Assembly: GCA_038326215.1 (NCBI GenBank)
Contig: JBBQJU010000001.1
Location: 1-50,033, forward strand
Direction of reading: 5' to 3'
Source: Gemmatimonadales bacterium
Lineage (GTDB): Bacteria; Gemmatimonadota; Gemmatimonadetes; Gemmatimonadales; GWC2-71-9
DNA length: 50,033 bases
The first letter of the stretch is position 1, and each line of letters starts with the position of its first letter. Shown here piece after piece: positions 36,399 to 49,376 of this stretch. The position numbers and the translations under genes were made by a program. Below the pieces are notes generated by a model, which did no database searches, was not told the DNA's origin, and saw only the letters and a program-made list of their open reading frames with translations.

Positions 36399-37616
36399 AT
36401 GACCAAGGGCAGGGAAGCGATGAAGTGGACCCCGACCCGAGCGGCAGGGCTGGCACGGTTGCAGGCGTTTCTTCCTTCGGCGGGGTACGCGTACACGCGA
36501 GGTCGCAATGTCGACCGCGGCCCCGAGGATCGGTCGAACGTCTCGGCGCTGTCGCCCTGGATTCGTCGGCGGATGATCACCGAGCACGAGGTAGTTGCCG
36601 CCGTGCTCGCGCAGCATGGACTGGTCGCGGCCGAGAAGTTCATCCAGGAGGTGTACTGGCGGACGTACTGGAAGGGCTGGCTTGAGCTGCGGCCCGGCGT
36701 CTGGCGGCGCTTCGAGGACGATCACGCCGCCTTGTCGGCGTCGTGGCAGGGCAACCGGACGCTCGAGGCGGCGAGACGTGGCGAGACGGGGATCGAGGCG
36801 TTCGATCAATGGACCCACGAGTTGCTCGAGACCGGATGGATGCACAACCACGCACGGATGTGGTACGCATCGATCTGGATCTTCACCTTGCGCCTCCCCT
36901 GGCAGCTGGGGGCGGGCCTCTTCTACGACCACCTGCTCGACGCCGATCCGGCCGCGAACACGCTCTCCTGGCGGTGGGTGGCCGGGCTGCAGACGCGCGG
37001 CAAGCACTATCTCGCGCGCGCCGCCAACATCCGCGACAACACGCTGGGCCGGTTCAACCCCAGCGGCCAGGTGGACGAAGACGCCGACCCGATCGTTGAG
37101 GATGCGGCGCTTCCCGCTCCGACCCCGGCGCCGCGTGGGGAGACACCGAGCACCGGGCGTGTGGCCCTGCTCCTGACCGAGGAGGATCTGCATCCGGAGA
37201 GTTGGCCTATGGAGGCCGCCATCACGGACTGCGCGGCGCTGGCCATGCCGCCACACGGCGCCCCCGAGAGCCCCGCCGCAGCATTCAGCCGGGGTGCCCT
37301 CGCCGATGCGCTTGGGCGCACGAAGGATGCGTTCGGTCCTGAGGGATTACTTCTGTCGCCTGCAGAAATTGCGGACTGGGCCAGCCGCACCGGCGTGACC
37401 GAAGTCGTGACCGGCTTTGCCGCGGTGGGTCCGATCGCCTGCTGCCTCGATGAGGTGGAACACCGCCTGCAGGCGCAGGGCCAGCGGCTGGTCCGGCTGC
37501 AACGGACCTGGGACACCAACGCCTGGCCACACGCCACGGCGGGATTCTTCAAGGTGAAGGAGCAGATTCCCCGGCTGGTCATGGCGGCGATGGCGGCGGA
37601 GCAGCATCGGCGCTGA
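36399..37616 (+). CDS. Photolyase/cryptochrome FAD-binding-domain protein lacking the N-terminal alpha/beta domain, with ~190-aa C-terminal extension
   Basis: ORF 36288..37616(+). The start is ATG 36399 or 36420. NVSALSPWIRRRMIT, QEVYWRTYW, GWMHNHARMWYASIW and YDHLLDADPAANTLSWRWVAGL are photolyase FAD_binding_7 signatures, and they begin within ~15 residues of the N-terminus. Confidence 0.75.
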   Translation: MTKGREAMKWTPTRAAGLARLQAFLPSAGYAYTRGRNVDRGPEDRSNVSALSPWIRRRMITEHEVVAAVLAQHGLVAAEKFIQEVYWRTYWKGWLELRPGVWRRFEDDHAALSASWQGNRTLEAARRGETGIEAFDQWTHELLETGWMHNHARMWYASIWIFTLRLPWQLGAGLFYDHLLDADPAANTLSWRWVAGLQTRGKHYLARAANIRDNTLGRFNPSGQVDEDADPIVEDAALPAPTPAPRGETPSTGRVALLLTEEDLHPESWPMEAAITDCAALAMPPHGAPESPAAAFSRGALADALGRTKDAFGPEGLLLSPAEIADWASRTGVTEVVTGFAAVGPIACCLDEVEHRLQAQGQRLVRLQRTWDTNAWPHATAGFFKVKEQIPRLVMAAMAAEQHRR

Positions 37617-37734
37617 CCGGGCGCTCCGAGCGGATGACGGCCCGCCATCACCGGCCGGCCCCCCTCGATTTGACGATTGGTTGATTTGGTGGGACTATCA
37701 TGAAAGCGTCCCCCCTCGCGGAGTGTCCCCCCGG

Positions 37735-40700
37735 ATGGCCCCCTTCCGACTCAGCTGCCTCGGTCCGCCGATCCTCTATGGCCCGGACGGCGACCCGATC
37801 CGTTTCCGGACCCGGAAGCACTTCGCCCTGCTCCTCTATCTCGCGGTGGAGCCCGGCATCCCGCTCCGCCGGGACCGACTCGCCACCCTGCTCTGGTCCG
37901 GCGCCGACGTCGACGAGGCGCGCCACTCGCTGGCCACCGCCCTCTCCATGATCCGCGGCCGCCTCGGCGCCGAACTGCTGGATACTGACCGCGACACCGT
38001 GCGCCTGATGCCCGGGCGGGTGGTGACCGACCTCCAGAGCCTCGACCACCACGATCCGGAAGAAATCGACGAGGGCCCGCTCGGCCCGTTCCTCGAGGAA
38101 TTCGACATTCCCGATGCGGTCGATTTCCAGCAGTGGAAGGATGGCCAGCACGCCCGGCTCCTCCCCGCGATCCATACCGCGATGGCGTCGCGCATCGAGC
38201 AGAGCCGGCGCCGTGGCGACTCGCGCCGGATGGAAATTCTCGGCCATCGACTCCAGCGCATCGACGAACTCTCCGAAGAGGCGGCACGCGCCGTCCTCGA
38301 AGCCCGGGCGATGGCGGGCGATCGCATTGGCGCCCTGCGCTCCTTCGACCGCTGGCGTGCGCGGCTCGCCGATGAACTCGGTGCGCATCCCTCGGCCCAA
38401 CTCGAACGGATGGCGGAGCGGCTGCGGCGCGGCGGGTGGCAGCGACCCACGATCGCGTTGCTGGCGCCGGTGCCGACCGAGCAGTGGAAGGAACGGAGCT
38501 TTGTCGGTCGTGGCGCCGAGTTCCGGACGTGCTACGATCGCTGGGAGCGCGTGCAGCGCGGCGAACCGCAACATCTGCTGGTCCGCGGCGAGAGTGGCAT
38601 CGGCAAGACGACGCTGGTGGAGCGGCTCACGACCTCGATGGCGCTCGAGGGCGCCAGCGTGGCGCGCGTCCAGTGCTATGAGCTCGAGCGTGAACTCCCG
38701 TTCGGTGTGACGGGCTCGGTGGTGAATCATCTGCTCGATCTGCCGGGCGCCGGGGCGACGCCTCCCGGGCAGTTGGCCGAGCTCGGCCGACTCTCGGCGA
38801 AGGTGCGCCAGCGCTATCCCTCGCTGCCCGCACCGATCGAGACCACCGGCGAGAGCGCACGGATCCTCTACACCGAAGCGGTGATGGCGCTCATCTCGGC
38901 AGTGGCCGAGGAGCATCCGGTCGTCCTCGTGATCGACGACATCCACTTGGCCGATGCAACGTCACTCACCGTGCTGCACCTCATGCTGCGCCGACTGGAG
39001 GCGTTGCCGTTGATGGTGATGCTGACGGCGTCGAGTGCGCCGGAGGCGGAGACGCCGAGCACGCGCCGTTTCCAGGAGAATGCGGTCTCGCTGAATCTGG
39101 CGCCGCTGGTACTCGGGCCGCTGACCGATGGCGAGTCGGCGGAGTTGCTTGAGCATCTCGTCGCCGCGACCGGCGACCCAGGCCCATCCATTCGCCGGGC
39201 GATTCTGGCCGGCGGCCGGGGCAACCCGATGGTGCTGGAACTGCTGGTGGGCGATTGGCGGCGGCGGGGCGATGGTTGCCTGGCGCTCTCGGTCAGCGCG
39301 ATGACGGCGCGGGCCGAGCGGCCGCCGAAGGAGACCTTTCAGCGGCTGGTCGAGGGGACGCTGGCGGCACTCACTGGCGAGGAGCGCTCGGTGGTCGAGC
39401 TCGCGGCGATCCTCGGGCAGCGGCTCAACGATCTCACGATGTACACGATGGTCGACCTGCCGGTGACGCGAACGATGCGCGCGATGGCGTCGCTCACCGG
39501 GCACCGGATCCTCCGCGACGCGGGCAGCCATCTGGAGTTCGCGAACGAGTTCATGCGCGGGCAGTGCTACGTGGGGACGGCGGCCCCGCTCCGGCGGATG
39601 CTGCACGGGCTGGTCGCGGAGCGGCTGTTGCTGGCCGATGGCGGCGACGAGGCGATCCCCGGGCTGGAGATTGCGTGGCATCTGGTGCGGGCGGACCGGT
39701 TGCACGAGGCCATCCCTTTCCTGTTGGCTGGTGGCAAGGAATCAATCCGGCGTGGCGCGCCACATGAGGCCGACCTGGCGCTCTCGACCGGTCTGCCGGC
39801 ACTCACTGGGCAACCGCGGCGCACCGCGATCCTGCTCTTGGCGGAGGCGCAGCAGGAACTGGGGCGGTGGGGCGATTCGCTGCGCCTGCTGGACGAGGCG
39901 GTGGAGCCGTTCTCGGAATCGGAGGAGTGCTGTCGGGAGGTGTTGCGGATTGTAGCGAGAAGGTGGCTGGGATACCTAACGCCGACTTCAATCCCTTTCG
40001 AGACCGACACGCTACTCGGAATTGCCGAGGGCTCGAGCGAGATGGAAGTTCGGGTGAAGGCCATGGCAGCTTGTGTCCGTGTGCTTGGTATCACAAGAGA
40101 ACCGGATCGTATTGCCCGCCTGACCACAATCGCCGCGTCGCTCGCCCCTATGGAAATGGACGGCTTCGAGCGGCTCCATGTGAGTTTCGTAGAGGCATGG
40201 CTCGCAGGGCATCGTCGCGAGATCGAGCACGCGTTGGCCTTGCTCGACGATGCAATTTGCCTTGCAAGTCGACTGAATGTTGCAAGCTCAATCAAGGTGC
40301 GATTGCTTATCGGCAAGGGCAACCTACTCTCAATTTTGGGACGGTATGGGGAAGCAGCAGCCCCGCTCTTTGAGGCGCACATCGGTGCCACCAGACTCGA
40401 CAATCGCACGCTCATAGGGGAATGTGCTGCCCAACTTGCCTTGGTGGAAGGAAGACTAGGACAACATATCGCGCAGGTTGATTGGGCGCGGAAAGCCATC
40501 GCGGCGTTCCCTGTTGGGGAGTGCAGCGCTTCGGTGGTTGGGGCCAACTACGAGCTTGGGCTAGGGCTTGCGAGTCAGGAGCGATTCGGAGAAGCGGCTG
40601 CAAGCGTCCTGGAGCGTAAGAGCCGAGTGACAACCCAAGTCCCGGCTTGGTTGAGGCAAGCCTCACTCCTGAGCGATGCGGATATTCTGGCGTTGGCCGG

Positions 40701-41052
40701 GCATGATCGACGCGCTAAACACCTCGCTAGGCAGGCTACAACAGGCACACTCGCAAATCTTCAAGACAAAGCGCACGCAGGATTGTACGCCCGATGGATC
40801 GCGCTTCTGAATCGAGAGAGCGTTGATCAGTCAGAGCCTGTGAGGTTGGTCGCAGAGTTAGTTGCGGACATCAATTCATTCGACCCGAAGGACCAGGCAG
40901 AGATCCTTGCTGCCCATGCACTCTTAGTCGATTGGGGGGCTGATCAAGCATCGGATCGATGGGGTGCAGTGCGAGAGCAGCTAAAACGGCTCCCAGCAAG
41001 CGTTGAGACGCTAATGCGGCGGCTTGGGACAATGCCGAAGAACGGAGCCTAG
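37735..41052 (+). CDS. SARP/AfsR-like STAND regulator: winged-helix + BTAD + P-loop NTPase + helical-repeat C-terminus (1105 aa)
   Basis: ORF 37681..41052(+), ATG at 37735. N-terminus: FRLSCLGPPILYGPDG...RTRKHFALLLYLAVEPG...RDRLATLLW (OmpR/SARP wHTH). BTAD wording: AVLEARAMAGDRIGALRSFDRWRARLADELGAHPS. Walker A: VRGESGIGKTT. Walker B: VVLVIDDIHLAD. Long alpha-helical C-terminus. Confidence 0.8.
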   Translation: MAPFRLSCLGPPILYGPDGDPIRFRTRKHFALLLYLAVEPGIPLRRDRLATLLWSGADVDEARHSLATALSMIRGRLGAELLDTDRDTVRLMPGRVVTDLQSLDHHDPEEIDEGPLGPFLEEFDIPDAVDFQQWKDGQHARLLPAIHTAMASRIEQSRRRGDSRRMEILGHRLQRIDELSEEAARAVLEARAMAGDRIGALRSFDRWRARLADELGAHPSAQLERMAERLRRGGWQRPTIALLAPVPTEQWKERSFVGRGAEFRTCYDRWERVQRGEPQHLLVRGESGIGKTTLVERLTTSMALEGASVARVQCYELERELPFGVTGSVVNHLLDLPGAGATPPGQLAELGRLSAKVRQRYPSLPAPIETTGESARILYTEAVMALISAVAEEHPVVLVIDDIHLADATSLTVLHLMLRRLEALPLMVMLTASSAPEAETPSTRRFQENAVSLNLAPLVLGPLTDGESAELLEHLVAATGDPGPSIRRAILAGGRGNPMVLELLVGDWRRRGDGCLALSVSAMTARAERPPKETFQRLVEGTLAALTGEERSVVELAAILGQRLNDLTMYTMVDLPVTRTMRAMASLTGHRILRDAGSHLEFANEFMRGQCYVGTAAPLRRMLHGLVAERLLLADGGDEAIPGLEIAWHLVRADRLHEAIPFLLAGGKESIRRGAPHEADLALSTGLPALTGQPRRTAILLLAEAQQELGRWGDSLRLLDEAVEPFSESEECCREVLRIVARRWLGYLTPTSIPFETDTLLGIAEGSSEMEVRVKAMAACVRVLGITREPDRIARLTTIAASLAPMEMDGFERLHVSFVEAWLAGHRREIEHALALLDDAICLASRLNVASSIKVRLLIGKGNLLSILGRYGEAAAPLFEAHIGATRLDNRTLIGECAAQLALVEGRLGQHIAQVDWARKAIAAFPVGECSASVVGANYELGLGLASQERFGEAAASVLERKSRVTTQVPAWLRQASLLSDADILALAGHDRRAKHLARQATTGTLANLQDKAHAGLYARWIALLNRESVDQSEPVRLVAELVADINSFDPKDQAEILAAHALLVDWGADQASDRWGAVREQLKRLPASVETLMRRLGTMPKNGA

Positions 41053-42515
41053 CCCCCGCCCTTCCCTTGGCCCATTTCGCCCCCTCCCGTCCGGTGCGCT
41101 GCCAACCGCGTAGCGCGCGTGCGCACCCTCGGCTTCGCTAGCGCTTCGGGGATAGTAGTCGGATCGGAGATCAGTCGGCGCACAGTTACCGAGTTCACGG
41201 TAAGCTCAACCAATTCGCTGTCGAACTGAGTCCCGCTGCACTTATGAAGCTCCGACACGACCGCCTCTAGACTAAGTGCGTTACGGTAAGGCCGGTTTGT
41301 GGTCATCGCATCAATCGTATCTGCGATTGTGATAATCCGAGCTCCAAGCGGAATCTCACGGGCTGCAATACCGTCAGGGTACCCACGGCCATCCCACCGT
41401 TCGTGGTGGTGCCGAACGCACGAAACGACGTAGCCTTGGAATCTCGAGAAGAGCGACACCAGGTCGGCGCTCCTGGCCGAGTGGGTCTTCATGACTTCCC
41501 ACTCCTCATCCGTAAGCTTCCCTTCCTTCTGAAGGAGGGGAGCGAATTCGGCGTGAATTTTCCCTACGTCATGCAACAATGCCGCGTTTTCGATGTCCTC
41601 AATCTCGTCCAGCGACAGCCCTAGATCGACAGCGATGGCACGGGAAAGACCAGACACACGCCGAGAGTGACCGGAGGTGTATGGGTCACGGGCTTCGATC
41701 GCCTTCACCATCATCGCCAGCTGCTCTCGAACATTCAGTTCAAGCTGCTCGTAGGCGCTATCAAGTTCGCTATATAACCCTTCAACTTCGTTCAACTTGT
41801 TATAGATGTGACGCACACCGATGAGCGGAAGAACGAGCACAAGAAATCCGAATCTCTCAAGCCCACTCCCGGTGTTGCTCTTGACGAACACGAAGGCAAC
41901 GACCAAGGAAAGTAGGCTCGCGGCCATATCATACCCGAGCACCCAGACCGTGTTCGCCCGCCATGTAGACCATAGCGGCCGCTTCGATGCGAGCGCGACG
42001 ACAGTGTTGACCGCGATCGAATTCACAATGAAATAGACCACAGCCGAGGCGAGGTACACCGCGATTTCTCGAAGCGCAAACTCAAAACTGACTGGACCAG
42101 CGGGCGTAGGAGGTGAGAGAAACAATGGCGGATTCTGCCCACCAAGCCAATGGTACACCGAAAATGTTAGTGTGACGCTAAGTACGCGCTCCGATGTATT
42201 GAAGATCGCCTTGATGACGTTCGTTCGCTGATATGCTTGTGAGAGTGCTTTGACAACGCCAGCGGCGAGGCCTCCCCACATGCCCCCAAGAACGAGTCCA
42301 ATCGCAAGGTGGAATACGAACACCAACGACCCACCGACCCCTCCCTGAACACTGCGCGTACCTGATATCTCCAACAGGAAACCGACGAGCACCAATGAAA
42401 ACAGCGCCCACGCGGTGATTGGCGGCGGCCCGAGAGTGCTCGTGTATCCGAGCATCGCGACCGCTGCAATGACCATGAAGGCGATGTAGGTGCTAACCGA
42501 CCGATTGAAAGACAT
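41049..42515 (-). CDS. Membrane-anchored HD-GYP domain c-di-GMP phosphodiesterase
   Basis: ORF 41049..42515(-), ATG start. About 230-aa multi-pass membrane N-terminus, then HD-GYP: GHSRRV, LLHDVGKI, HHERWDGRGYPDG, DTIDAMT. Its stop codon overlaps the convergent regulator stop (CTAG at 41049-41052). Confidence 0.9.
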   Translation of the reverse strand: MSFNRSVSTYIAFMVIAAVAMLGYTSTLGPPPITAWALFSLVLVGFLLEISGTRSVQGGVGGSLVFVFHLAIGLVLGGMWGGLAAGVVKALSQAYQRTNVIKAIFNTSERVLSVTLTFSVYHWLGGQNPPLFLSPPTPAGPVSFEFALREIAVYLASAVVYFIVNSIAVNTVVALASKRPLWSTWRANTVWVLGYDMAASLLSLVVAFVFVKSNTGSGLERFGFLVLVLPLIGVRHIYNKLNEVEGLYSELDSAYEQLELNVREQLAMMVKAIEARDPYTSGHSRRVSGLSRAIAVDLGLSLDEIEDIENAALLHDVGKIHAEFAPLLQKEGKLTDEEWEVMKTHSARSADLVSLFSRFQGYVVSCVRHHHERWDGRGYPDGIAAREIPLGARIITIADTIDAMTTNRPYRNALSLEAVVSELHKCSGTQFDSELVELTVNSVTVRRLISDPTTIPEALAKPRVRTRATRLAAHRTGGGEMGQGKGGG

Positions 42516-42796
42516 AAGACAAGGAAAGAAGAACCGTTAGTTACCGATTTAGACCCAGGTTTGCGTCTCCGCGAGGAAAATACTCGCGATGAAGTCGACG
42601 GCCGCAGCCAACCACTCCAGCATATGCGTCACCTCCTCTCCGGTCAATCAGTTACTTCTGGAGGTGGCAGACCCCGCTATGGTCCACCAGACGCTTCGCT
42701 TTGTCGACCGCTCGGCTCCGCTCTTGGTATCGGATCCCTATCGATTCTTCTCCCCGTACTCCTTCTGGTGCGCCCTGGTGCACCGGTTACTGGTTA

Positions 42797-42821
42797 CTGG
42801 TCACGGCTTCCGTGTGACCAG
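42797..42821 (-). terminator. Stem-loop 21 nt downstream of the 42842 gene
   Basis: ctggtcac / ggcttccgt / gtgaccag is an 8-bp perfect stem. No clear U-tract follows on the minus strand (followed by UAACCAGUAACC). Confidence 0.4.
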
Positions 42822-42841
42822 GCATTTCCAACAGTTCTGCG

Positions 42842-43603
42842 CTACCGTCCCCGCCGCGTCCCGAACCACCGGTTCGTCGCGTCGAGGACCGCATACACTG
42901 CCGCGTGCTCGGCACTCTCAATCACTTCGGCGGTCCCCACGAGCAACTTCGCTTCGCGTCCGCCCACCGTGTGCACGCCCACCATCACATAGGTCCGGCC
43001 GAAGGCGTCCTGAATCGTCGCCCCCTCCAGTACCAGCGAATACTTGTCCGCCAGCCGTTCCAGCACCGCGACCGCGGCACGCGCCGCCGTCTCGACCTTG
43101 TTCCGCGCGGTGTCCGGTCCTTCCTCGGTGGCCGACTCGAGCCGACCCTCGCAGGAGAGTGTCACTGTCGCCGAGACTTTCCGCTTCCCCGACGCCTGGG
43201 CCATCACCAGGTCATCGAACAACACCATCCGCTTCACCAAGCCGTCCTGCGCCGGCACAGCCACCATCGTCGGCTGCGACGCATCGATCGGGCGGACATC
43301 GGCGGTCTGCGCGACCGAGATCTTCCGGTGATCAACCCGCAACCCGAGGTGGGCCAGCAACGCCGACTCGACGTTCCGGACCACCTGCTTCGGGGCCTGC
43401 CCCGCCTGTGCCAGGATGTGGATCTCGCTCACCTCGCCGAGCGGCGTCGTCACCACGCGCGCGGAGAGGACGCCCTCGAGCGACGTCAGGAGATTCTCGG
43501 CCCGGCGCACGCCCCAGGGATCGGTCGCCGGATCGATCGGCGAGCCACCCGGCCGGGAAGCCGAAGCATCGAAGAACTGCGAGGGTGAAGCGGTCACGGG
43601 CAT
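42842..43603 (-). CDS. Hypothetical two-domain protein (unknown function), co-oriented 27 nt downstream of the diguanylate cyclase
   Basis: ORF 42842..43627(-). The track start is TTG; the first ATG is at 43603 (MPVTASPSQ...). Third-position GC is 19/20 in 43081-43140 for this frame, which is strongly coding. I recognise no family. Confidence 0.65.
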   Translation of the reverse strand: MPVTASPSQFFDASASRPGGSPIDPATDPWGVRRAENLLTSLEGVLSARVVTTPLGEVSEIHILAQAGQAPKQVVRNVESALLAHLGLRVDHRKISVAQTADVRPIDASQPTMVAVPAQDGLVKRMVLFDDLVMAQASGKRKVSATVTLSCEGRLESATEEGPDTARNKVETAARAAVAVLERLADKYSLVLEGATIQDAFGRTYVMVGVHTVGGREAKLLVGTAEVIESAEHAAVYAVLDATNRWFGTRRGR

Positions 43604-43630
43604 GCCTCGTGGTGAACGGTCGTGCAAACG

Positions 43631-45367
43631 CTAGGCGACGGTATTCCGGCCGGCCGACTTGGCCAGATACAGCGCGCGATCAGCCTGTTCCAACAGCGGT
43701 CCTTCATTCGGATGCGCCGGATCGTACTCGGCGACGCCCACGCTGGCAGTGATCTGCCCGGCGAGGAAGCCCAGCCGCCGACCCGACTGCTCGATCCGGT
43801 CCCGCAACGCATCAGCGACTCGCAGCGCCCCCGCCCGTTCGGTCCGCGTCAGCAGCACCACGAACTCATCGCCGCCATACCGCGCCGCCAGATCGGTCGC
43901 CCGGATCGTCTTCCGGATCTCGTCCGCCACACTCCGGAGCACCGTGTTGCCGCGCTCGTGTCCGAAGCGATCGTTCAGCTCCTTGAGTCGATCGAGATCG
44001 ATGAAGAGCACCGCGAAGGAATCGCCACTCCGCTTGCTCCGCTCCATCTCGTGCGACAACCGCTGCTGCAACGAGCGATAGCTCGCCAATCCCGTCAGGG
44101 CATCCGTGCTCGCGTCGCGCGACGCATCCTCGGCCCGCTTCGACAACCACGGCACACACTGCCGCAGCGAGGCGCGGCCCAATGCCGCCGCCTGGGCGAA
44201 GCGATGACAGGAGGGATATCCACAGGCCCGGCAATCCCACGCCTTCCCGTTCGGTCCCGTCCCGATCGCCTCGAGAATCGTCAACACCGCCGCCGGCTCG
44301 GCTTGCTCCCGCCGATGCCCGAAGGCGAAGGCCGCCCCCACCTGCACATCCGGCTGGTCCGGCACCACCGGCTGCCGACTCCGCGGCGGCTCGTACTGCT
44401 GGACCAGCATCCGCCGCCGGAACAGTTCGTCCTTCGGGCCCGCCGCCGGATGCCCAAGCGCCCCGGGATGCGACAGAAAATCGACGAAGCCGAGGTCGAT
44501 CCGATCGTGCCCCACCGCCCGCGACAACGCCGGCAGATTCTCCAGCCCCCGGACCGCCAGCAGCCGTCGCCCACGCGACGAGCCACTCACCACCATCTCC
44601 AGCGGAAGACCCCCGGCCACCGACATGTGCCGTCGGGTCTCGGGCGGAACCCGGGAATGGGTCCGTGGAAGCGTTTCCGGTCGGACCTCCCGCAAGGCAA
44701 AGAGCTGCTCGAGGTCCGCAAAGGAGAGCAGGGCGTCGAGCTCCTGGACCGTGCCGCCAGGGGCACTCACCCCGGCATACACCACCGGGAGGGAATCCCC
44801 ATGCATCCGACGCAGGAATCGCGCCTCGGCTACGCAGGGGTAGGTCACGGGGGCCAGATAGGGAACAAGTTCGGGATAGTGGGCCGTAATCGCTGCGACG
44901 GCGACCGGATCGGTACTCCGAATGAGGGTCCCCCAGTCGGGATCCTCCCACAACTTGAGGTATTGCTGCGCCACCAGCTCGTCGCCGATCACCCCACGGG
45001 ACACCAGCCGGAATCCCGCCTCATAACAGGCGTTGACCAACTGTTCTGGCGAGGCCGGGTGAAAGTGAACCACCGCCTCGGGGGCCAGAATCAGCGCCCC
45101 ATTGCCGCCTTCGGCAATCGCAAGCGCTCGATCCACCGCTCCTGAGGCCGAGATCGCCTGATGGGGGCAGGCGGGGATGCATTCGCCGCAGGAGATGCAG
45201 TTTTCGTCGACAATTTCCACCACGCGCGCCTCGGGCGGGAGGGCAATGGCATCGGTCGGGCAGGCGCGAACGCAGGCCAGACAAGCGACGCAACGCGAGG
45301 GGTCAATGGCGAGCTGCAAGGGCGCTCTGGGGAGGAGGTGGGTCCGGCGCTCCCTGCAAGTTGGCAA
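43631..45367 (-). CDS. Diguanylate cyclase (GGDEF) fused to 2x[4Fe-4S] ferredoxin, degenerate [FeFe]-hydrogenase-like domain and 4-Cys Fe-S module
   Basis: ORF 43631..45367(-). Motifs: CVACLACVRACP, CISCGECIPACP, a hydrogenase-large-subunit-like core without H-cluster cysteines, WDCRACGYPSCHRFAQA...C, and a GGDEF domain (RYGGDEFVVL) with an RATD I-site. The track start is TTG 45367. The alternative TTG 45319 would give MQLAIDPSRCVAC. Confidence 0.85.
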   Translation of the reverse strand: MPTCRERRTHLLPRAPLQLAIDPSRCVACLACVRACPTDAIALPPEARVVEIVDENCISCGECIPACPHQAISASGAVDRALAIAEGGNGALILAPEAVVHFHPASPEQLVNACYEAGFRLVSRGVIGDELVAQQYLKLWEDPDWGTLIRSTDPVAVAAITAHYPELVPYLAPVTYPCVAEARFLRRMHGDSLPVVYAGVSAPGGTVQELDALLSFADLEQLFALREVRPETLPRTHSRVPPETRRHMSVAGGLPLEMVVSGSSRGRRLLAVRGLENLPALSRAVGHDRIDLGFVDFLSHPGALGHPAAGPKDELFRRRMLVQQYEPPRSRQPVVPDQPDVQVGAAFAFGHRREQAEPAAVLTILEAIGTGPNGKAWDCRACGYPSCHRFAQAAALGRASLRQCVPWLSKRAEDASRDASTDALTGLASYRSLQQRLSHEMERSKRSGDSFAVLFIDLDRLKELNDRFGHERGNTVLRSVADEIRKTIRATDLAARYGGDEFVVLLTRTERAGALRVADALRDRIEQSGRRLGFLAGQITASVGVAEYDPAHPNEGPLLEQADRALYLAKSAGRNTVA

Positions 45368-45422
45368 GGCCCATGAGAAGTGTCAAGAGGTGAGGGGGTC
45401 CAAAGGTTTGAAATGGCAGGAC

Positions 45423-46997
45423 TTAGACGATATCGAACTCCTTCAATTTCCGGTACAGCGTCCGCTCGCCGATCCCCAGAACCTGGGCGGCCTTCCGCCG
45501 ATTGCCTCGGAATTCTTCGAGAACCGCCAGAATCGTCGCCTTTTCCACCTCTGCCATGGTCATCCCGGGCCGGTAGAGCACCTGGCTCTCAGGCACTGGC
45601 TCGTCCACCTCAGGATCGATGGGCCCAATCGCTCCAATGGCCTCAATCCCTCCGACCGTCACCGGCGGCATGAATGGAATTGCGACAGCATGCGGTTCCG
45701 ACACCTCGATGAGCTGCACGGGAGTGTGGCGATCCTCCAGACGGCGCCGCAGCTCCTCGACCTGCATCCGCAACTCCATCAACGAGCGCAGGATGAACTC
45801 GAACTCGGCACCGCCGACCGCCAGCCCGCCGGTGTCGCGGGTGCCGACCACCGGCATTCGCATCGGGAGGACGCCCACCGCGCCGTCATTGATGTCCGAC
45901 GGAATGTCGCTGGCGCGGATTTCATTCCCCGGCGCCAGCACCACCATCGACTCGACCAGGTTCCGCAATTGTCGCACGTTACCGGGCCACGGCGCGTTCA
46001 CCAGCCGCTGCATCGCCTCGCTGCTGATCCCCGGAAAGGGGCGATCATGCTGCGCGGTGAACTCCTTCACGAAGCGCTTGACGAGCAGCGGGATGTCACT
46101 GCTCCGCTCGCGCAAGGGTGGGAGGTAGATCGAGAGGACGTTGAGTCGGTAGTAGAGATCGTCGCGGAAGGCGCCGTTGGCGACCTGATCCTTGAGCGCA
46201 CGATTCGTCGCCGCGACGACGCGCACGTCGACCTTGATCGGCGCGACACCACCCAAGCGGAAGAACGACCTGGTCTCGAGCACGCGCAGCAGCTTCACCT
46301 GCACGCTCGGCGGAATCTCGCCGATTTCATCGAGGAAGATGGTCCCCGTGTCGGCCAGTTCGAAGCGACCGAGACGACGCTCCGCCGCGCCAGTGAAGGC
46401 GCCCTTCTCGTGGCCGAACAGTTCGCTCTCGAGCAGCATCTCGGGCAGCGCCGCGCAATTGATCGCGATGAATGGCCGCCCGCGGCGCGGCGAGAGATCG
46501 TGGATCGCCTTCGCAACCAGTTCCTTGCCGGTGCCCGACTCCCCCTGAATGAGGACCGTGCTCGACACCGGGGCCATCTGCTCGATCTTGACCAGCACCT
46601 CGTGCACCGGCGGCGAGTCGCCGAAGATGCCGGTGCGGCGCTGCAAGGCGTGCCGCTCGACCATCCGGCGCACCGTCGCGACGAGATCATCACTGGCCAG
46701 CGGCTTGGTCACGATTTCGGTGGCGCCGAGGCGTTCGCCGCGCTCGCGATCGCCAGGCTCGAGCAGCAGTAGCACGGCCGTTTCATGGTCGCGTGCGTAA
46801 CTCGCCAGCGCGGCAATGCTCGGCTCGTGCACCGCGCCGGTAATCACCAGCAGGTCGGGATGTTCGCGACGGATCGCCGCGCGCGCCTCGTCAGCGGTGA
46901 CGGCCACGGCGCTCGCCATGCCCGCGTTCTCGAGCGCGCGATCGAGCGGGACGGCGATCTCGAGATCGGCGAGCGTGATGACGACCTGGGCGGCCAT
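45423..46997 (-). CDS. Sigma54-dependent transcriptional activator (bEBP) with degenerate receiver domain and Fis-type HTH
   Basis: ORF 45423..46997(-), ATG start. Motifs: GESGTGKE (Walker A), GAFTGA loop (EKGAFTGA), IFLDEIG (Walker B), WPGNVRQL, C-terminal AAQVLGIGERTLYRKLKEF. Confidence 0.9.
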   Translation of the reverse strand: MAAQVVITLADLEIAVPLDRALENAGMASAVAVTADEARAAIRREHPDLLVITGAVHEPSIAALASYARDHETAVLLLLEPGDRERGERLGATEIVTKPLASDDLVATVRRMVERHALQRRTGIFGDSPPVHEVLVKIEQMAPVSSTVLIQGESGTGKELVAKAIHDLSPRRGRPFIAINCAALPEMLLESELFGHEKGAFTGAAERRLGRFELADTGTIFLDEIGEIPPSVQVKLLRVLETRSFFRLGGVAPIKVDVRVVAATNRALKDQVANGAFRDDLYYRLNVLSIYLPPLRERSSDIPLLVKRFVKEFTAQHDRPFPGISSEAMQRLVNAPWPGNVRQLRNLVESMVVLAPGNEIRASDIPSDINDGAVGVLPMRMPVVGTRDTGGLAVGGAEFEFILRSLMELRMQVEELRRRLEDRHTPVQLIEVSEPHAVAIPFMPPVTVGGIEAIGAIGPIDPEVDEPVPESQVLYRPGMTMAEVEKATILAVLEEFRGNRRKAAQVLGIGERTLYRKLKEFDIV

Positions 46998-46999
46998 GG

Positions 47000-47482
47000 T
47001 CAGTGCGCCGTGTCGCCGTGCAGTTGACGCACGGCGTGATGAAGGATCGGCAGCAGCGCGGCGAGGCCGTCGCGCACGCCACCCGGGGACCCGGGAAGAT
47101 TGACGATCAGTGTCGCACCGCGTGCGCCAGCGACGCCACGCGAGAGGATCGACGTCGGTACCGCCGCCTGTCCTGCACGCCGCAACGCCTCGGCGATGCC
47201 CGGCGCCTCGCGATCGAGCACCGCGCGGGTGGCCTCGGGGGTCACATCACGCGGCGCGAGCCCGGTGCCCCCAGTGGTGAGGATCACATCCACGGCACCA
47301 CCATCGGACCAGGTCAGCAGTTGCGTCGAGATCTGATCGGCCTCGTCGGGCACCAGGGCGCGCGCGGCCAACGAGAGCTGATGCTCATCGATCCACTCGA
47401 CGACCACCGCGCCGGAGCGGTCCTCGCGTTCACCACGCGCTGCGGCATCGGAGATCGTCAACACGGCGACACGCATGCTCAC
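47000..47482 (-). CDS. mog: MogA/MoaB-family molybdopterin adenylyltransferase
   Basis: ORF 47000..47482(-). TISDAAARGEREDRSG, LTTGGTGLAPRDVTPEAT, DREAPGIAEALR, VPTSILSRGVAG and NLPGSPGG track E. coli MogA closely. The start is GTG 47482 or ATG 47476. Confidence 0.85.
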   Translation of the reverse strand: MSMRVAVLTISDAAARGEREDRSGAVVVEWIDEHQLSLAARALVPDEADQISTQLLTWSDGGAVDVILTTGGTGLAPRDVTPEATRAVLDREAPGIAEALRRAGQAAVPTSILSRGVAGARGATLIVNLPGSPGGVRDGLAALLPILHHAVRQLHGDTAH

Positions 47483-48480
47483 GCTTCGGGGGCCAGCGGT
47501 GGCGTGCTGCGCGACACGAACGGACGGCGCACCACGTCGGCGGTCCAGCTCTGGCCATCCGCCTCGATCACCAGCGAGGTGCCCACGGCCTCGGTCGACG
47601 TCGGCAGCGCGGTCATGCCGATGATCCCGACACGCGGTGACCGTGCGATCGAGCGGACGCGATCGACCAGATGTCCACCGACCCGCACCGCGGCGCCGAT
47701 CGGCGGCATTTCATCGCCGGCGACGGTGAAGCCGGCAATCCGCTTCATCGCACCGGTCCGGCGCCGCGCCGCGAGTGCGGTCTCGCCCGGAAAGGGGGCG
47801 CCCTTCCCCTCGGCAACGAGCGACTCGAGTCCCGCTTCCATCGGCGTATCCTCGGCGTCGATTTCCTGACCGACGCGCGCCGTGCCCCACTCGTCGCGGA
47901 AGAGCTGCCATGCCGCCTCCTCGACCGGCACGACGGCCGCGCCGAGCAGCGCCGACTCGAGCGACGCACGGTCGCGCTGGCGGCAGAAGAAGTCGAAGCC
48001 CTCGGGGCCGTCGAGCGTCGCGCGCGCCGCGAAGAGATCGACGCCGGCAAGGCGTGCGCCGACGACATCGCCGCCCTCGGTTGGCATCGGTTCCAGCAGG
48101 CGCGAGAGTCGCACGGCCGACGCGGGACCGCGCACGGTGATCACGCAGACATCATCCGAGATGTCGCGCATGCGGACGGTGCCACGCTTCCGGGCGACGA
48201 GATACTCCCAGGCGGCCTCCTTTTGCGCGGCATCGACCAGCAGCATCAACTGGTCGGGGAAGCGATAGATCGTCACGCGGCCGAGAATCGTGGCATCGTC
48301 GCGGAGCAGCAGCGCGTGCACGAAACGGCCCGGCGGGAGCTTGGTGATGTCGGCCGTGGTGAGACGGTTGACGAGGGCGTGGGCATCGGCGCCGGTCAGT
48401 TCGAACTGACCAAGGCCCGGGGCGGTCCACGAGGCGGCGCCTGCCGTGAGGGCGCGGTACTGCGTGAGGAGATCGGTCAT
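47479..48480 (-). CDS. GcvT-family (aminomethyltransferase-like) folate-binding protein
   Basis: ORF 47479..48606(-), start at ATG 48480 (MTDLLTQY...). FELTGADAHALVNRLTTADI, GPEGFDFFC and EAGLESLV...KGAPFPGE follow the GcvT/YgfZ pattern. ATGA overlap with the argF stop. Confidence 0.7.
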   Translation of the reverse strand: MTDLLTQYRALTAGAASWTAPGLGQFELTGADAHALVNRLTTADITKLPPGRFVHALLLRDDATILGRVTIYRFPDQLMLLVDAAQKEAAWEYLVARKRGTVRMRDISDDVCVITVRGPASAVRLSRLLEPMPTEGGDVVGARLAGVDLFAARATLDGPEGFDFFCRQRDRASLESALLGAAVVPVEEAAWQLFRDEWGTARVGQEIDAEDTPMEAGLESLVAEGKGAPFPGETALAARRRTGAMKRIAGFTVAGDEMPPIGAAVRVGGHLVDRVRSIARSPRVGIIGMTALPTSTEAVGTSLVIEADGQSWTADVVRRPFVSRSTPPLAPEA

Positions 48481-49376
48481 GGGAAGAGCATCGCGAGTAG
48501 GGCCTTCTGGGCGTGGAGTCGATTCTCGGCTTGATCCCAGACGCGCGACTGGGGCCCTTCGAGCACACCGTCGCTGATCTCCTCGCCGCGATGCGCGGGA
48601 AGGCAATGCAGGACAATGGCGGATGGATCGGCTTGGGCCACCAGTGCCTCATCGACGATGTAGCCCTTGAAGGCCTGCTTCCGCAGGGCCATCTCGGCTT
48701 CCTGCCCCATCGAGACCCAGACATCGGTGTTGATCACGTGGGCGCCCGCGACGGCTTCATCGGGGTCCTCGGTGATCATGATCTTCGTGCGGGTGCGGTT
48801 GGCGTCGTAGATCGCCTTGTCGGGCTCATAGCCCTCGGGGCAGGCGATCCGCAGCTCGAAGCCGAGGAGGCCGGCAGCCTCGATCCAGGAGTTGGCCATG
48901 TTGCAGCCATCGCCCACCCAGGCGACCACTTTGCCGTCGAGCGAGCCAATGGCCTCGTCGATGGTGAGCAGGTCGGCGAGGAGTTGTCAGGGGTGCAGCA
49001 GGTCGGTCAGGCCGTTGATGACGGGGACGGCCGACCAGGCGGCGAGCTCCTCGACGTCGGCATGGGCGAAGGTCCGGATCATCATCCCGTCGACGAAGCG
49101 GGAAAGGACGCGGGCCATGTCCTTCAGCGGCTCACCGCGGCCGAGCTGGATGTCGCGGGCGGAGAGGAAGATCGCGTGTCCGCCAAGCTGGCGGGTCCCG
49201 ACCTCGAAGGAGACGCGGGTGCGGGTCGAGCTCTTGGCGAAGATCAGGCCGATATGCTTGTCGGCGAGCGGCTTGTCGTGGTATTCCCCGCGCTTCATCG
49301 CGCGCGCGGTGTCGAGCAGGGTCCGGAGCTCGGCGCGGGTGATGTCGGCAAAGGAGAGGAAGTGACGAGGCGACAT
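48477..49376 (-). pseudogene. argF: Ornithine carbamoyltransferase interrupted by a single in-frame TGA (48987-48989)
   Basis: Track ORFs 48987..49376 (N-half: [23 protein letters not shown]) and 48477..48929 (C-half: VAWVGDGCNMANS, HCLPAHRGEE) are in the same frame. Direct reading across the gap gives ...[40 protein letters not shown]..., so the stop sits where the HPCQ Cys codon is expected. Confidence 0.8.

Follow-up and report, generated by a model that had tools for sequence, protein, structure and literature searches.

A protein of unnamed family, a structured leader RNA and a small open reading frame accompany a membrane HD-GYP phosphodiesterase in two bacterial phyla

What kind of unit is formed when genes for a sigma54-dependent activator, a diguanylate cyclase, a protein of no named family and a cyclic di-GMP (c-di-GMP) phosphodiesterase lie in a row? 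The question is raised by a 50,033-nucleotide stretch of DNA from a Gemmatimonadales bacterium (GenBank assembly GCA_038326215.1, contig JBBQJU010000001.1, positions 1 to 50,033), referred to here as the window. Its four minus-strand open reading frames (ORFs) encode a bacterial enhancer-binding protein (bEBP; here EBP), a cyclase with an Fe-S sensor (Fe-S-GGDEF), a 253-residue protein (U253) and a membrane HD-GYP protein. An earlier note on this DNA had described the same four genes; all are present where it placed them (Table 1) and the intergenic gaps of 55, 27 and 326 nt were confirmed. The note read the genes as a single redox-c-di-GMP-sigma54 unit. The comparisons reported here show that U253, a structured RNA within the 326-nt leader, an unannotated small ORF (sORF) behind it and the MASE9-like HD-GYP protein are an ancient core found in at least two phyla. 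The explanation that we favour, at about even confidence, is that this core is a module with translational control which was set beside the Fe-S cyclase and the EBP in the Gemmatimonadales.

Gene order was compared in 80 species-level Gemmatimonadales genome loci, each scored as far as its contig reaches. The order GcvT-like, MogA-like, EBP, Fe-S-GGDEF, U253, HD-GYP and convergent STAND regulator is kept in all 80, with the EBP present in 72 of 72 and the cyclase in 79 of 79 loci that reach far enough, which bears out the co-occurrence expected by the earlier note within this order. Identities go down to approximately 57% for U253 and 43–50% for the HD-GYP protein, and the synteny of the cassette is far beyond chance. 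Insertions are found at two places. A prolyl oligopeptidase gene is inserted in the MogA-EBP interval of L062 (3200-6560; numbers prefixed L are our locus designations), and a similar gap of ~3.4 kb is found there in L044, L050, L065, L068 and L079. In L009 (4650-8230), genes for an M1 peptidase and an FtsX-like permease, ~3.6 kb in all, lie between the EBP and cyclase genes.

In the other Gemmatimonadota, the loci L082, L084, L090 and L091 keep U253, HD-GYP and STAND (the contigs of L083 and L089 end earlier), and the genes upstream of U253 are unrelated ones, such as a thymidine kinase gene and a phosphodiesterase-family gene. The EBP and the Fe-S cyclase are absent beside U253 in the six Gemmatimonadota loci from outside the Gemmatimonadales whose contigs extend upstream, and in the four Armatimonadota loci (L085-L088). 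The Armatimonadota loci encode U253, then a MASE9/HD_5 protein, another HD_5 protein (the shorter of the two in L085, L086 and L088) and a PMT-family glycosyltransferase, with DUF5317 between the last two in three of the four (not L087). The STAND regulator is a conserved neighbour of HD-GYP across the Gemmatimonadota and is absent in the Armatimonadota. In three of the four Armatimonadota loci U253 directly follows pheS-pheT; in L085, L086 and L088 it ends a thrS-infC-rpmI-rplT-pheS-pheT translation-gene cluster.

Two further sets of loci separate the partners. L081 (8750-9123) has U253, the AGCG repeats of the RNA described below, a Shine-Dalgarno sequence (SD) and a 25-residue sORF (MLSAFVGFASQVFAGFFGWSGFITW) and has no HD-GYP gene, the next gene encoding a 346-residue TetR_N protein. 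This shows that the trio of U253, RNA and sORF can exist without the phosphodiesterase. In metagenome contigs with U253 at 40–43% identity, the EBP alone is found upstream in L093 and L165 and Fe-S-GGDEF alone in L095, and such adjacency in diverged lineages speaks more strongly for a functional link than synteny by descent does. Given this patchy presence, the EBP and the cyclase are recurrent but dispensable neighbours, and U253 and HD-GYP are the durable pair. The claim that the four genes form one indivisible unit is not sustained, because EBP and cyclase are absent from those six Gemmatimonadota and four Armatimonadota loci and because L009 splits one from the other.

The 326-nt leader ahead of the HD-GYP gene was correctly measured in the earlier note; a conserved structured RNA and a conserved sORF lie inside it. 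The spacer from U253 to HD-GYP is long at all loci (about 210–510 nt). The RNA block contains four or five copies of (G/U)AGCG(G/A), which occupy 42690-42722 in the window, and is drawn as three helices, P1 to P3. The pairing was tested in an alignment (A3) of 51 loci, in which 89.4% of cells were paired, versus 42–50% with the partners slid; cells with a double change numbered 70 versus 20 in shuffles, and seven of the nine P2 pairs were compensatory. The second test used 32 metagenome sequences, none of which had served to derive the structure, and gave 90.5% paired cells (38–52% when slid), compensatory changes in all nine P2 pairs and 12 pairs with changes on both sides (5.7 in shuffles). 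The observed covariation score, paired cells and double-change cells were reached by none of 500 shuffles in either test. Pairs with changes on both sides numbered 10–12 across the tests, a value reached by 8 of 500 shuffles in the first and by none of 500 in the second. The minimum free energy (MFE) fold of the window RNA contains the same three helices, with the AUG paired as well.

A covariance model of the RNA (R1) gave exactly one match at E ≤ 1e-3 in each locus, and in every case the match lies just 3′ of U253; this holds also for loci outside the training set (L083, L089, L090 and L091). The Armatimonadota spacers score weakly under R1 (best E = 0.13); diverged as they are, they keep GAGCGRAGCGG, a hairpin that has (U/G)AGCG in its loop, and an SD covered by an AACCC/GGGGUU helix. 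A pattern scan of metagenomes returned 120 matches, of which ~45 fell by chance within unrelated genes and were set aside. U253 was detected directly upstream of the RNA at 55 metagenome loci, and all genuine instances that reach far enough upstream have U253 there.

Searches of Rfam 15 gave no match in the whole window at gathering thresholds and none in 42300-43000 at E up to 10, ruling out a c-di-GMP riboswitch or other known RNA family. The AGCG repeats, at a spacing of ~11 nt, were also considered as DNA sites for the SARP/STAND regulator, a candidate that was rejected because the Armatimonadota keep the repeats without STAND and because covariation between the P2 arms is of the kind seen in RNA. 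The hairpin which the earlier note placed after the U253 gene is no more stable than shuffled sequence (z = 0.10) and lacks a U-tract, so it is not terminator-like; the terminator scan was empty at this position, and an intrinsic terminator after U253 was discarded.

Behind the RNA lies an ORF of 22–35 codons, whose start codon in 50 of 51 loci is the aligned AUG and in the last one (L084) GTG. A strong GGAGG precedes it at every locus, that of the window (GGAGAGGAGG) being the sole strong SD in the cassette: no clear SD was found at the starts of the GcvT-like, MogA-like, EBP, cyclase, U253 or HD-GYP genes (window 42516-48630). The genome may be SD-poor in general, against which the conserved and sequestered SD of the sORF stands out. 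The encoded peptide has a hydrophobic core and a C-terminus that mostly reads ..[AS]E[GT]xxW[x]. In five subgroups of equal length, the ratio of nonsynonymous to synonymous variation (pN/pS) was 0.29–0.59, and variation was greatest at the third codon position, with the first at or above the second, so the peptide sequence is itself under selection. The Armatimonadota counterparts resemble signal or transmembrane peptides and end in WPP or PPP, as in MKTLVKVLLALAALVLSSGAFPKYWPPP. The sORF is missing from public gene calls. As a hydrophobic peptide of 22–35 residues with a conserved C-terminal motif, encoded just upstream of a membrane sensor enzyme, it resembles the PhoQ modulators MgrB and SafA and the peptides SecM, MifM and VemP; it differs from them in having no homology to any.

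The U253 family is large: a search returned over 4,200 homologues, each labelled 'hypothetical', the family counts 2,193 clusters at 50% identity, and at least 582 stretches in the species-representative genome collection encode a relative; a few homologues carry the JGI label 'predicted nucleic-acid-binding protein'. The window protein has no match in Pfam, NCBIfam or PADLOC, and a domain-by-domain search at E up to 10 was also empty, which agrees with its first description as a protein of unknown family. The AlphaFold2 (AF2) model (predicted local distance difference test score, pLDDT, 80.5 overall) has two domains of high confidence, with a disordered linker between them and a disordered stretch at the N-terminus. 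The N-domain (residues ~28-100), an alpha-beta-beta-alpha-beta fold with a pLDDT of 90.5 when modelled alone, is the most conserved part and carries the motifs PKQxVRNVES and VDHRKISVAQ. In Foldseek it matched the PrgK/EscJ ring-building motif (5tcp, 4oyc, 6rwx and 1yj7; TMq 0.49–0.63, E 3e-4 to 2e-3), and the ANL C-terminal subdomains and ZnT/MamM C-terminal domains fit about equally. The likeness of the modelled N-domain to the ring-building motif of PrgK, EscJ and FliF is one of fold only.

The C-domain (residues ~125-251) is modelled as (beta-beta-beta-alpha)x2, and Foldseek placed it with the regulatory domains of LeuA and CimS (3hpz, 3fig, 1sr9 and 3f6g; probability 1.00, E 1.5e-5 to 5e-4). 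Pfam LeuA_dimer (PF08502) matched the homologue P0423 at 25.0 bits (cut-off 24.9; E 2e-5) and P0263 at E = 0.02, with no match in the window U253 itself. The C-domain therefore has the same predicted fold as the allosteric domain of LeuA and citramalate synthase, from which it differs in being free of the catalytic TIM barrel and in an identity of 13–18%.

The description of the last gene as a membrane HD-GYP protein with intact HD and GYP motifs was confirmed: Pfam matched HD_5 (PF13487, 7.6e-33) and HD (8.4e-19), and the motifs LLHDVGK and HHERWDGRGYP (HHExxDGxGYP) are intact. Its multi-pass N-terminus scores 18.4 bits for MASE9 (cut-off 24.3); the match is weak in relatives and clear in the Armatimonadota locus L087 (E ≤ 1e-5). 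HD-GYP is the least conserved protein of the cassette, at 43–74% identity across loci. It shares a multi-pass N-terminus and an HD-GYP domain with all catalytic motifs with the MASE9-HD-GYP proteins TM1467 of T. maritima and HdgA of S. venezuelae, and differs in that the MASE9 match in the window is below threshold. Passages of the survey by Galperin and Chou predict intramembrane ligand binding by MASE9 (bioRxiv 10.1101/2021.11.05.467447), and its survey passages do not mention the U253/RNA/sORF trio.

How might these parts work together? The three-helix junction locks the SD of the peptide ORF and, in the window sequence, its start codon too; since the SD is sequestered in this way, the RNA most likely acts as a switch on translation. 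Such a switch would set the timing of peptide synthesis and, by way of the short spacer that follows, probably that of HD-GYP synthesis as well. By analogy, U253 may be the trans-acting sensor, an oligomer that is gated by a ligand and recognises the AGCG repeats. This role is suggested by its constant adjacency to the RNA, by the repetition of the motifs and by its mix of domains. HutP, PyrR and TRAP are ligand-activated oligomeric RNA-binding proteins that read short repeats in the RNA of their own operons (hut, pyr and trp). The functional analogy is that U253 is encoded first, that an intercistronic RNA in which a short motif recurs four or five times would control what follows, and that U253 is predicted to combine a domain of small-molecule-binding type with one of oligomerisation type. 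U253 differs from all three in having no sequence or fold relationship to them, and the window RNA would control access to the SD rather than a terminator. The peptide most likely crosses the membrane once and acts there as a partner of the MASE9 domain; because MASE9 is predicted to bind its ligand in the membrane, a membrane micro-peptide as partner is plausible.

Several observations weigh against this explanation. The domains of U253 are approximately charge-neutral by our own residue count, and the nearest folds of its model (ring-building motif, ANL C-terminal subdomain and LeuA regulatory domain) are not nucleic-acid-binding. The folding energy of the window RNA is unexceptional (z = -1.4), and the RNA might respond to a metabolite directly, as a protein-independent riboswitch. 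In L145 (contig Ga0335079_10005979) a gene for a 250-residue helix-turn-helix (HTH) and response-regulator receiver protein lies between U253 and the RNA/sORF, the sole case seen in which U253 and RNA are not adjacent. The C-terminal Trp of the peptide is replaced in a few sORFs (L063, L064, L107, L132 and L169). In the Armatimonadota at least ~150 nt separate the sORF from the start of HD-GYP, and coupling of their translation would thus not be general. Finally, we infer co-transcription of cyclase, U253 and HD-GYP from their spacing alone.

A bolder version, to which we attach a small probability, is that U253 founds a new class of ligand-gated, oligomeric RNA-binding regulators, with ring-building-motif-like domains that read the AGCG repeats of a new leader RNA and so unlock translation of a membrane micro-peptide; the peptide would be the intramembrane ligand or partner of MASE9. 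The circuit from protein through RNA and peptide to HD-GYP would govern c-di-GMP breakdown in the Gemmatimonadota and Armatimonadota, and in the Gemmatimonadales it would be wired to an Fe-S-sensing cyclase of sensory-hydrogenase origin.

The cyclase was described in the earlier note as an Fe-S/GGDEF protein, and this is correct: it has an Fe-S sensor module of the HydS type and an intact GGDEF motif. Pfam identified two Fer4 domains, Fe_hyd_lg_C (33.9 bits; weak but significant), an FeS domain (PF04060) and a GGDEF domain (PF00990, 2.5e-41). RYGGDEF is invariant in 18 homologues, and the RxxD I-site, five residues ahead of GGDEF, is intact (RATDLAARYGGDEF). Twelve Fe-S cysteines are kept across the 18 homologues, eight of them in the ferredoxin part (scored in every homologue covering that region) and four in a Cx2Cx4Cx16C motif. 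In the same homologues the hydrogenase-like H-domain has one conserved cysteine between residues 90 and 370. The segments at the L1- and L3-like H-cluster positions read RSTDP (in place of TSCCP) and SHPGALGHP, which we take to be the counterparts of the H-cluster-binding motifs of true [FeFe]-hydrogenases. With the H-cluster cysteines lost, the sensor can neither act as a hydrogenase nor sense H2 by way of an H-cluster. The score for TIGR04105 was 80.6 bits against a cut-off of 450, and ferredoxin modules were the sole matches in a PDB sequence search with the sensor.

The putative sensory [FeFe]-hydrogenases TmHydS and TamHydS have an N-terminal F-domain with two [4Fe-4S] motifs, an H-domain and a C-terminal four-Cys [4Fe-4S] site before the output domain (PMC13104023). 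The cyclase sensor shares this domain order with HydS groups C/D, to which these proteins belong, C379 and C404 being numbered as in TamHydS (PMC13104023), and differs in that the H-cluster cysteines are missing and in that the output is a fused GGDEF domain and not PAS or nothing. As judged from its sequence, the protein is a HydS-derived Fe-S module fused to an active-looking cyclase, whose HydS-like domain would bind up to three [4Fe-4S] clusters and no H-cluster. Such a HydS-derived, H-cluster-less GGDEF sensor is a new variant, the individual enzyme families being known. It represents a sensory-hydrogenase scaffold which lacks the H-cluster, has retained the three accessory clusters and has gained a GGDEF output, and it bears on the question of what the C-terminal cluster of HydS is for. 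In the Gemmatimonadales the core is joined across the 27-nt gap to this cyclase, with the aspartate-less bEBP adjoining; given the 27-nt linkage, Fe-S/redox-controlled synthesis of c-di-GMP and its post-transcriptionally gated breakdown are probably co-expressed.

The EBP has the Pfam domains Sigma54_activat (PF00158, 2.8e-70), AAA_lid_14 and HTH_8, with the Fis-type HTH at the C-terminus (PF02954, 8.8e-15), and its translation carries Walker A (GESGTGKE), the GAFTGA loop and Walker B (FLDEIGE). No NCBIfam equivalog model reaches its cut-off for this protein. The N-terminal ~120 residues align with a receiver domain (NtrC served as the reference sequence), with no Pfam Response_reg match at E up to 0.01. 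The position of the phospho-acceptor Asp is Thr or Ser in all 15 aligned proteins (the window protein and 14 homologues), which supports the proposal that the EBP is not phosphorylated in the classical way. The protein thus has the AAA+ sigma54-interaction domain with GAFTGA, the lid and the Fis-type HTH of NtrC-family bEBPs, and differs from them in a receiver without the phospho-acceptor Asp and in that no nearby sigma54 promoter was found.

Matches to the -24/-12 element with up to two mismatches number 12 in the window, versus 18.5 expected, and none lies inside the intergenic regions of the cassette. No positionally conserved -24/-12 element was found within 10 kb in 26 full-length loci, and the gaps between EBP and U253 in L093 and L165 hold no sigma54 element. 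There is therefore no support for control of the cassette by sigma54, and the suggestion that the cassette sets sigma54-dependent transcription was not borne out. One window site, TGGAACACCGCCTGCA at 37456-37471 (+), ~210 nt upstream of the STAND ORF, has GG/GC at sigma54 spacing with two mismatches; none comparable was found at a shared position among the 26 full-length loci. The ~250-nt EBP-U253 gap of L093 (1920-2140) and L165 (1282-1530) shares a promoter-like TTGAC-N17-AATATT, followed by a conserved block, GCA.CC.CCTACC.CTAGCG.

These results bear on the model of the earlier note, in which cyclase activity is set by the Fe-S state, U253 is a c-di-GMP effector or partner and the EBP converts the signal into sigma54-dependent transcription. 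The invariant order in the Gemmatimonadales with its 55-nt and 27-nt gaps, the recurrence of the EBP alone or Fe-S-GGDEF alone beside U253 in diverged lineages, the intact motifs of both cyclase and phosphodiesterase and the need of an aspartate-less receiver for non-phosphoryl input are all in its favour. The model nevertheless seems unlikely, because EBP and cyclase are missing beside U253/HD-GYP in every other Gemmatimonadota locus that reaches upstream and in all four of the Armatimonadota, because unrelated genes separate the two in L009, because the search for a conserved sigma54 promoter within 10 kb was negative, and because, by Pfam, U253 resembles neither PilZ nor MshEN nor any other known receptor of c-di-GMP. 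It also leaves out the RNA and the sORF, which are the most constant partners of U253.

A second alternative is that the RNA is a self-sufficient riboswitch for a small molecule, such as a c-di-GMP-related nucleotide, and that U253 is a ligand-binding subunit or partner of HD-GYP or of the peptide. Invariant single-stranded AGCG nucleotides around a three-way junction that sequesters an SD are the usual layout of a riboswitch, and the folds of U253 are of allosteric and oligomerisation types, not those of RNA binders. There is also precedent, as the GEMM-I and GEMM-II riboswitch classes control c-di-GMP enzymes and are, like the window RNA, structured leaders ahead of a c-di-GMP phosphodiesterase gene. 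The window RNA differs from both in architecture and conserved nucleotides, and in the lack of a match to any Rfam family. A short motif repeated four or five times fits the sites of a multimeric protein better than a ligand pocket, and the RNA was never found without U253 upstream, whereas HD-GYP can be missing (L081). We therefore regard a self-sufficient riboswitch as improbable.

The sORF might instead encode not a functional membrane protein but an arrest or leader peptide, a monitoring substrate of the SecM, MifM or VemP type; a stall at Trp-stop in the Gemmatimonadota, or at WPP/PPP-stop in the Armatimonadota, would remodel the mRNA and allow translation of HD-GYP. Stalling at C-terminal Pro or polyproline is established, with SecM, MifM, VemP and TnaC as precedents. 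The hydrophobic N-terminal segment, the conserved C-terminal motif at the stop and the polyproline ends in the Armatimonadota would suit such a role, as would the HD-GYP start in the window, 33 nt past the sORF and without an SD. Stalling is quite unlikely all the same, given the long Armatimonadota spacer, the absence of HD-GYP from L081, purifying selection over the whole peptide and not its C-terminus only, and the lack, in the window, of conserved structure from the end of the sORF to the beginning of HD-GYP. Inherited synteny of independent signalling genes without functional coupling is very unlikely: the 80 genome loci do come from one order and the flanking housekeeping genes (GcvT-like and MogA-like) are equally conserved, but the U253/RNA/sORF/HD-GYP core persists across phyla amid changing surroundings, insertions split the flanks and never the core (L145 apart), and EBP or cyclase re-appears beside U253 in varied combinations.

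HD-GYP proteins of the MASE type are widespread; here one is tied across two phyla to three uncharacterised elements, namely an unnamed protein family (more than 2,000 clusters at 50% identity), an RNA motif that Rfam does not contain and a micro-peptide without annotation. Searches of Rfam 15, Pfam, NCBIfam and the literature turned up no description of the U253 family, of the AGCG-repeat RNA or of the sORF. Literature searches on c-di-GMP in Gemmatimonadetes, on sensory hydrogenases with diguanylate cyclases and on Gemmatimonadetes RNA motifs returned nothing on this locus. If a U253-gated translational switch is the right explanation, it would provide a first handle on the input of MASE9, a new RNA-based layer of control over c-di-GMP turnover and possibly a new RNA-binding fold, in a phylum of abundant soil bacteria whose signalling biology is almost unstudied.

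Table 1 Features of the cassette and its neighbours, in coordinates of the window.
Feature	Position	Strand	Basis or detail
EBP, sigma54-dependent activator (bEBP)	45423-46997	minus	Pfam, NCBIfam, sequence motifs
Fe-S-GGDEF diguanylate cyclase, HydS-like Fe-S sensor	43631-45367	minus	Pfam, conserved Cys
U253, 253-aa protein, unnamed family	42842-43603	minus	homologue search, AF2, Foldseek
Structured leader RNA, ~105 nt	42621-42725	minus	alignment, covariation, covariance model, MFE
Helix P1	42690-42694 with 42626-42630	minus	GAGCGUC pairs GACGCUC, ends at AUG
Hairpin P2	42681-42688 with 42666-42673	minus	9 bp; loop AUAGCGG in window, AUAGCGR overall
Helix P3	anti-SD 42660-42665 with SD 42631-42636	minus	CUUCCC pairs GGGAGG; start codon directly after
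Unannotated small ORF, 24 aa, MLEWLAAAVDFIASIFLAETQTWV	42549-42623	minus	SD, conserved ORF, pN/pS
Membrane (MASE9-like) HD-GYP phosphodiesterase	41049-42515	minus	Pfam, motifs
Convergent AfsR/SARP-like STAND regulator	37681-41052	plus	Pfam Trans_reg_C, BTAD, AAA_16; synteny
MogA/MoaB-like gene	47000-47482	minus	Pfam, NCBIfam
GcvT-like folate-binding protein gene	47479-48606	minus	Pfam, NCBIfam

Upstream of the cassette, the MogA-like gene ends 2 nt ahead of the EBP start and overlaps the GcvT-like gene by 4 nt; both genes are probably in the same operon as the cassette. The GcvT-like gene is a divergent paralogue (122.8 bits versus an NCBIfam cut-off of 300). YgfZ-type folate-binding GcvT-like proteins are linked to the maintenance of Fe-S enzymes, and through such a role the gene could connect to the Fe-S cyclase. 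At the other end, a reading of the STAND and HD genes as a defence system was rejected, as PADLOC gave generic HD matches to Cas3 models only. The GC content is 0.578 at window 40001-42000, over the HD-GYP gene, and 0.64–0.72 elsewhere in the window. A JGI metagenome contig, Ga0138256_10077347 (L134), encodes a partial U253 and an sORF that are 100% identical to those of the window and, by this identity, samples the same or a near-identical organism.

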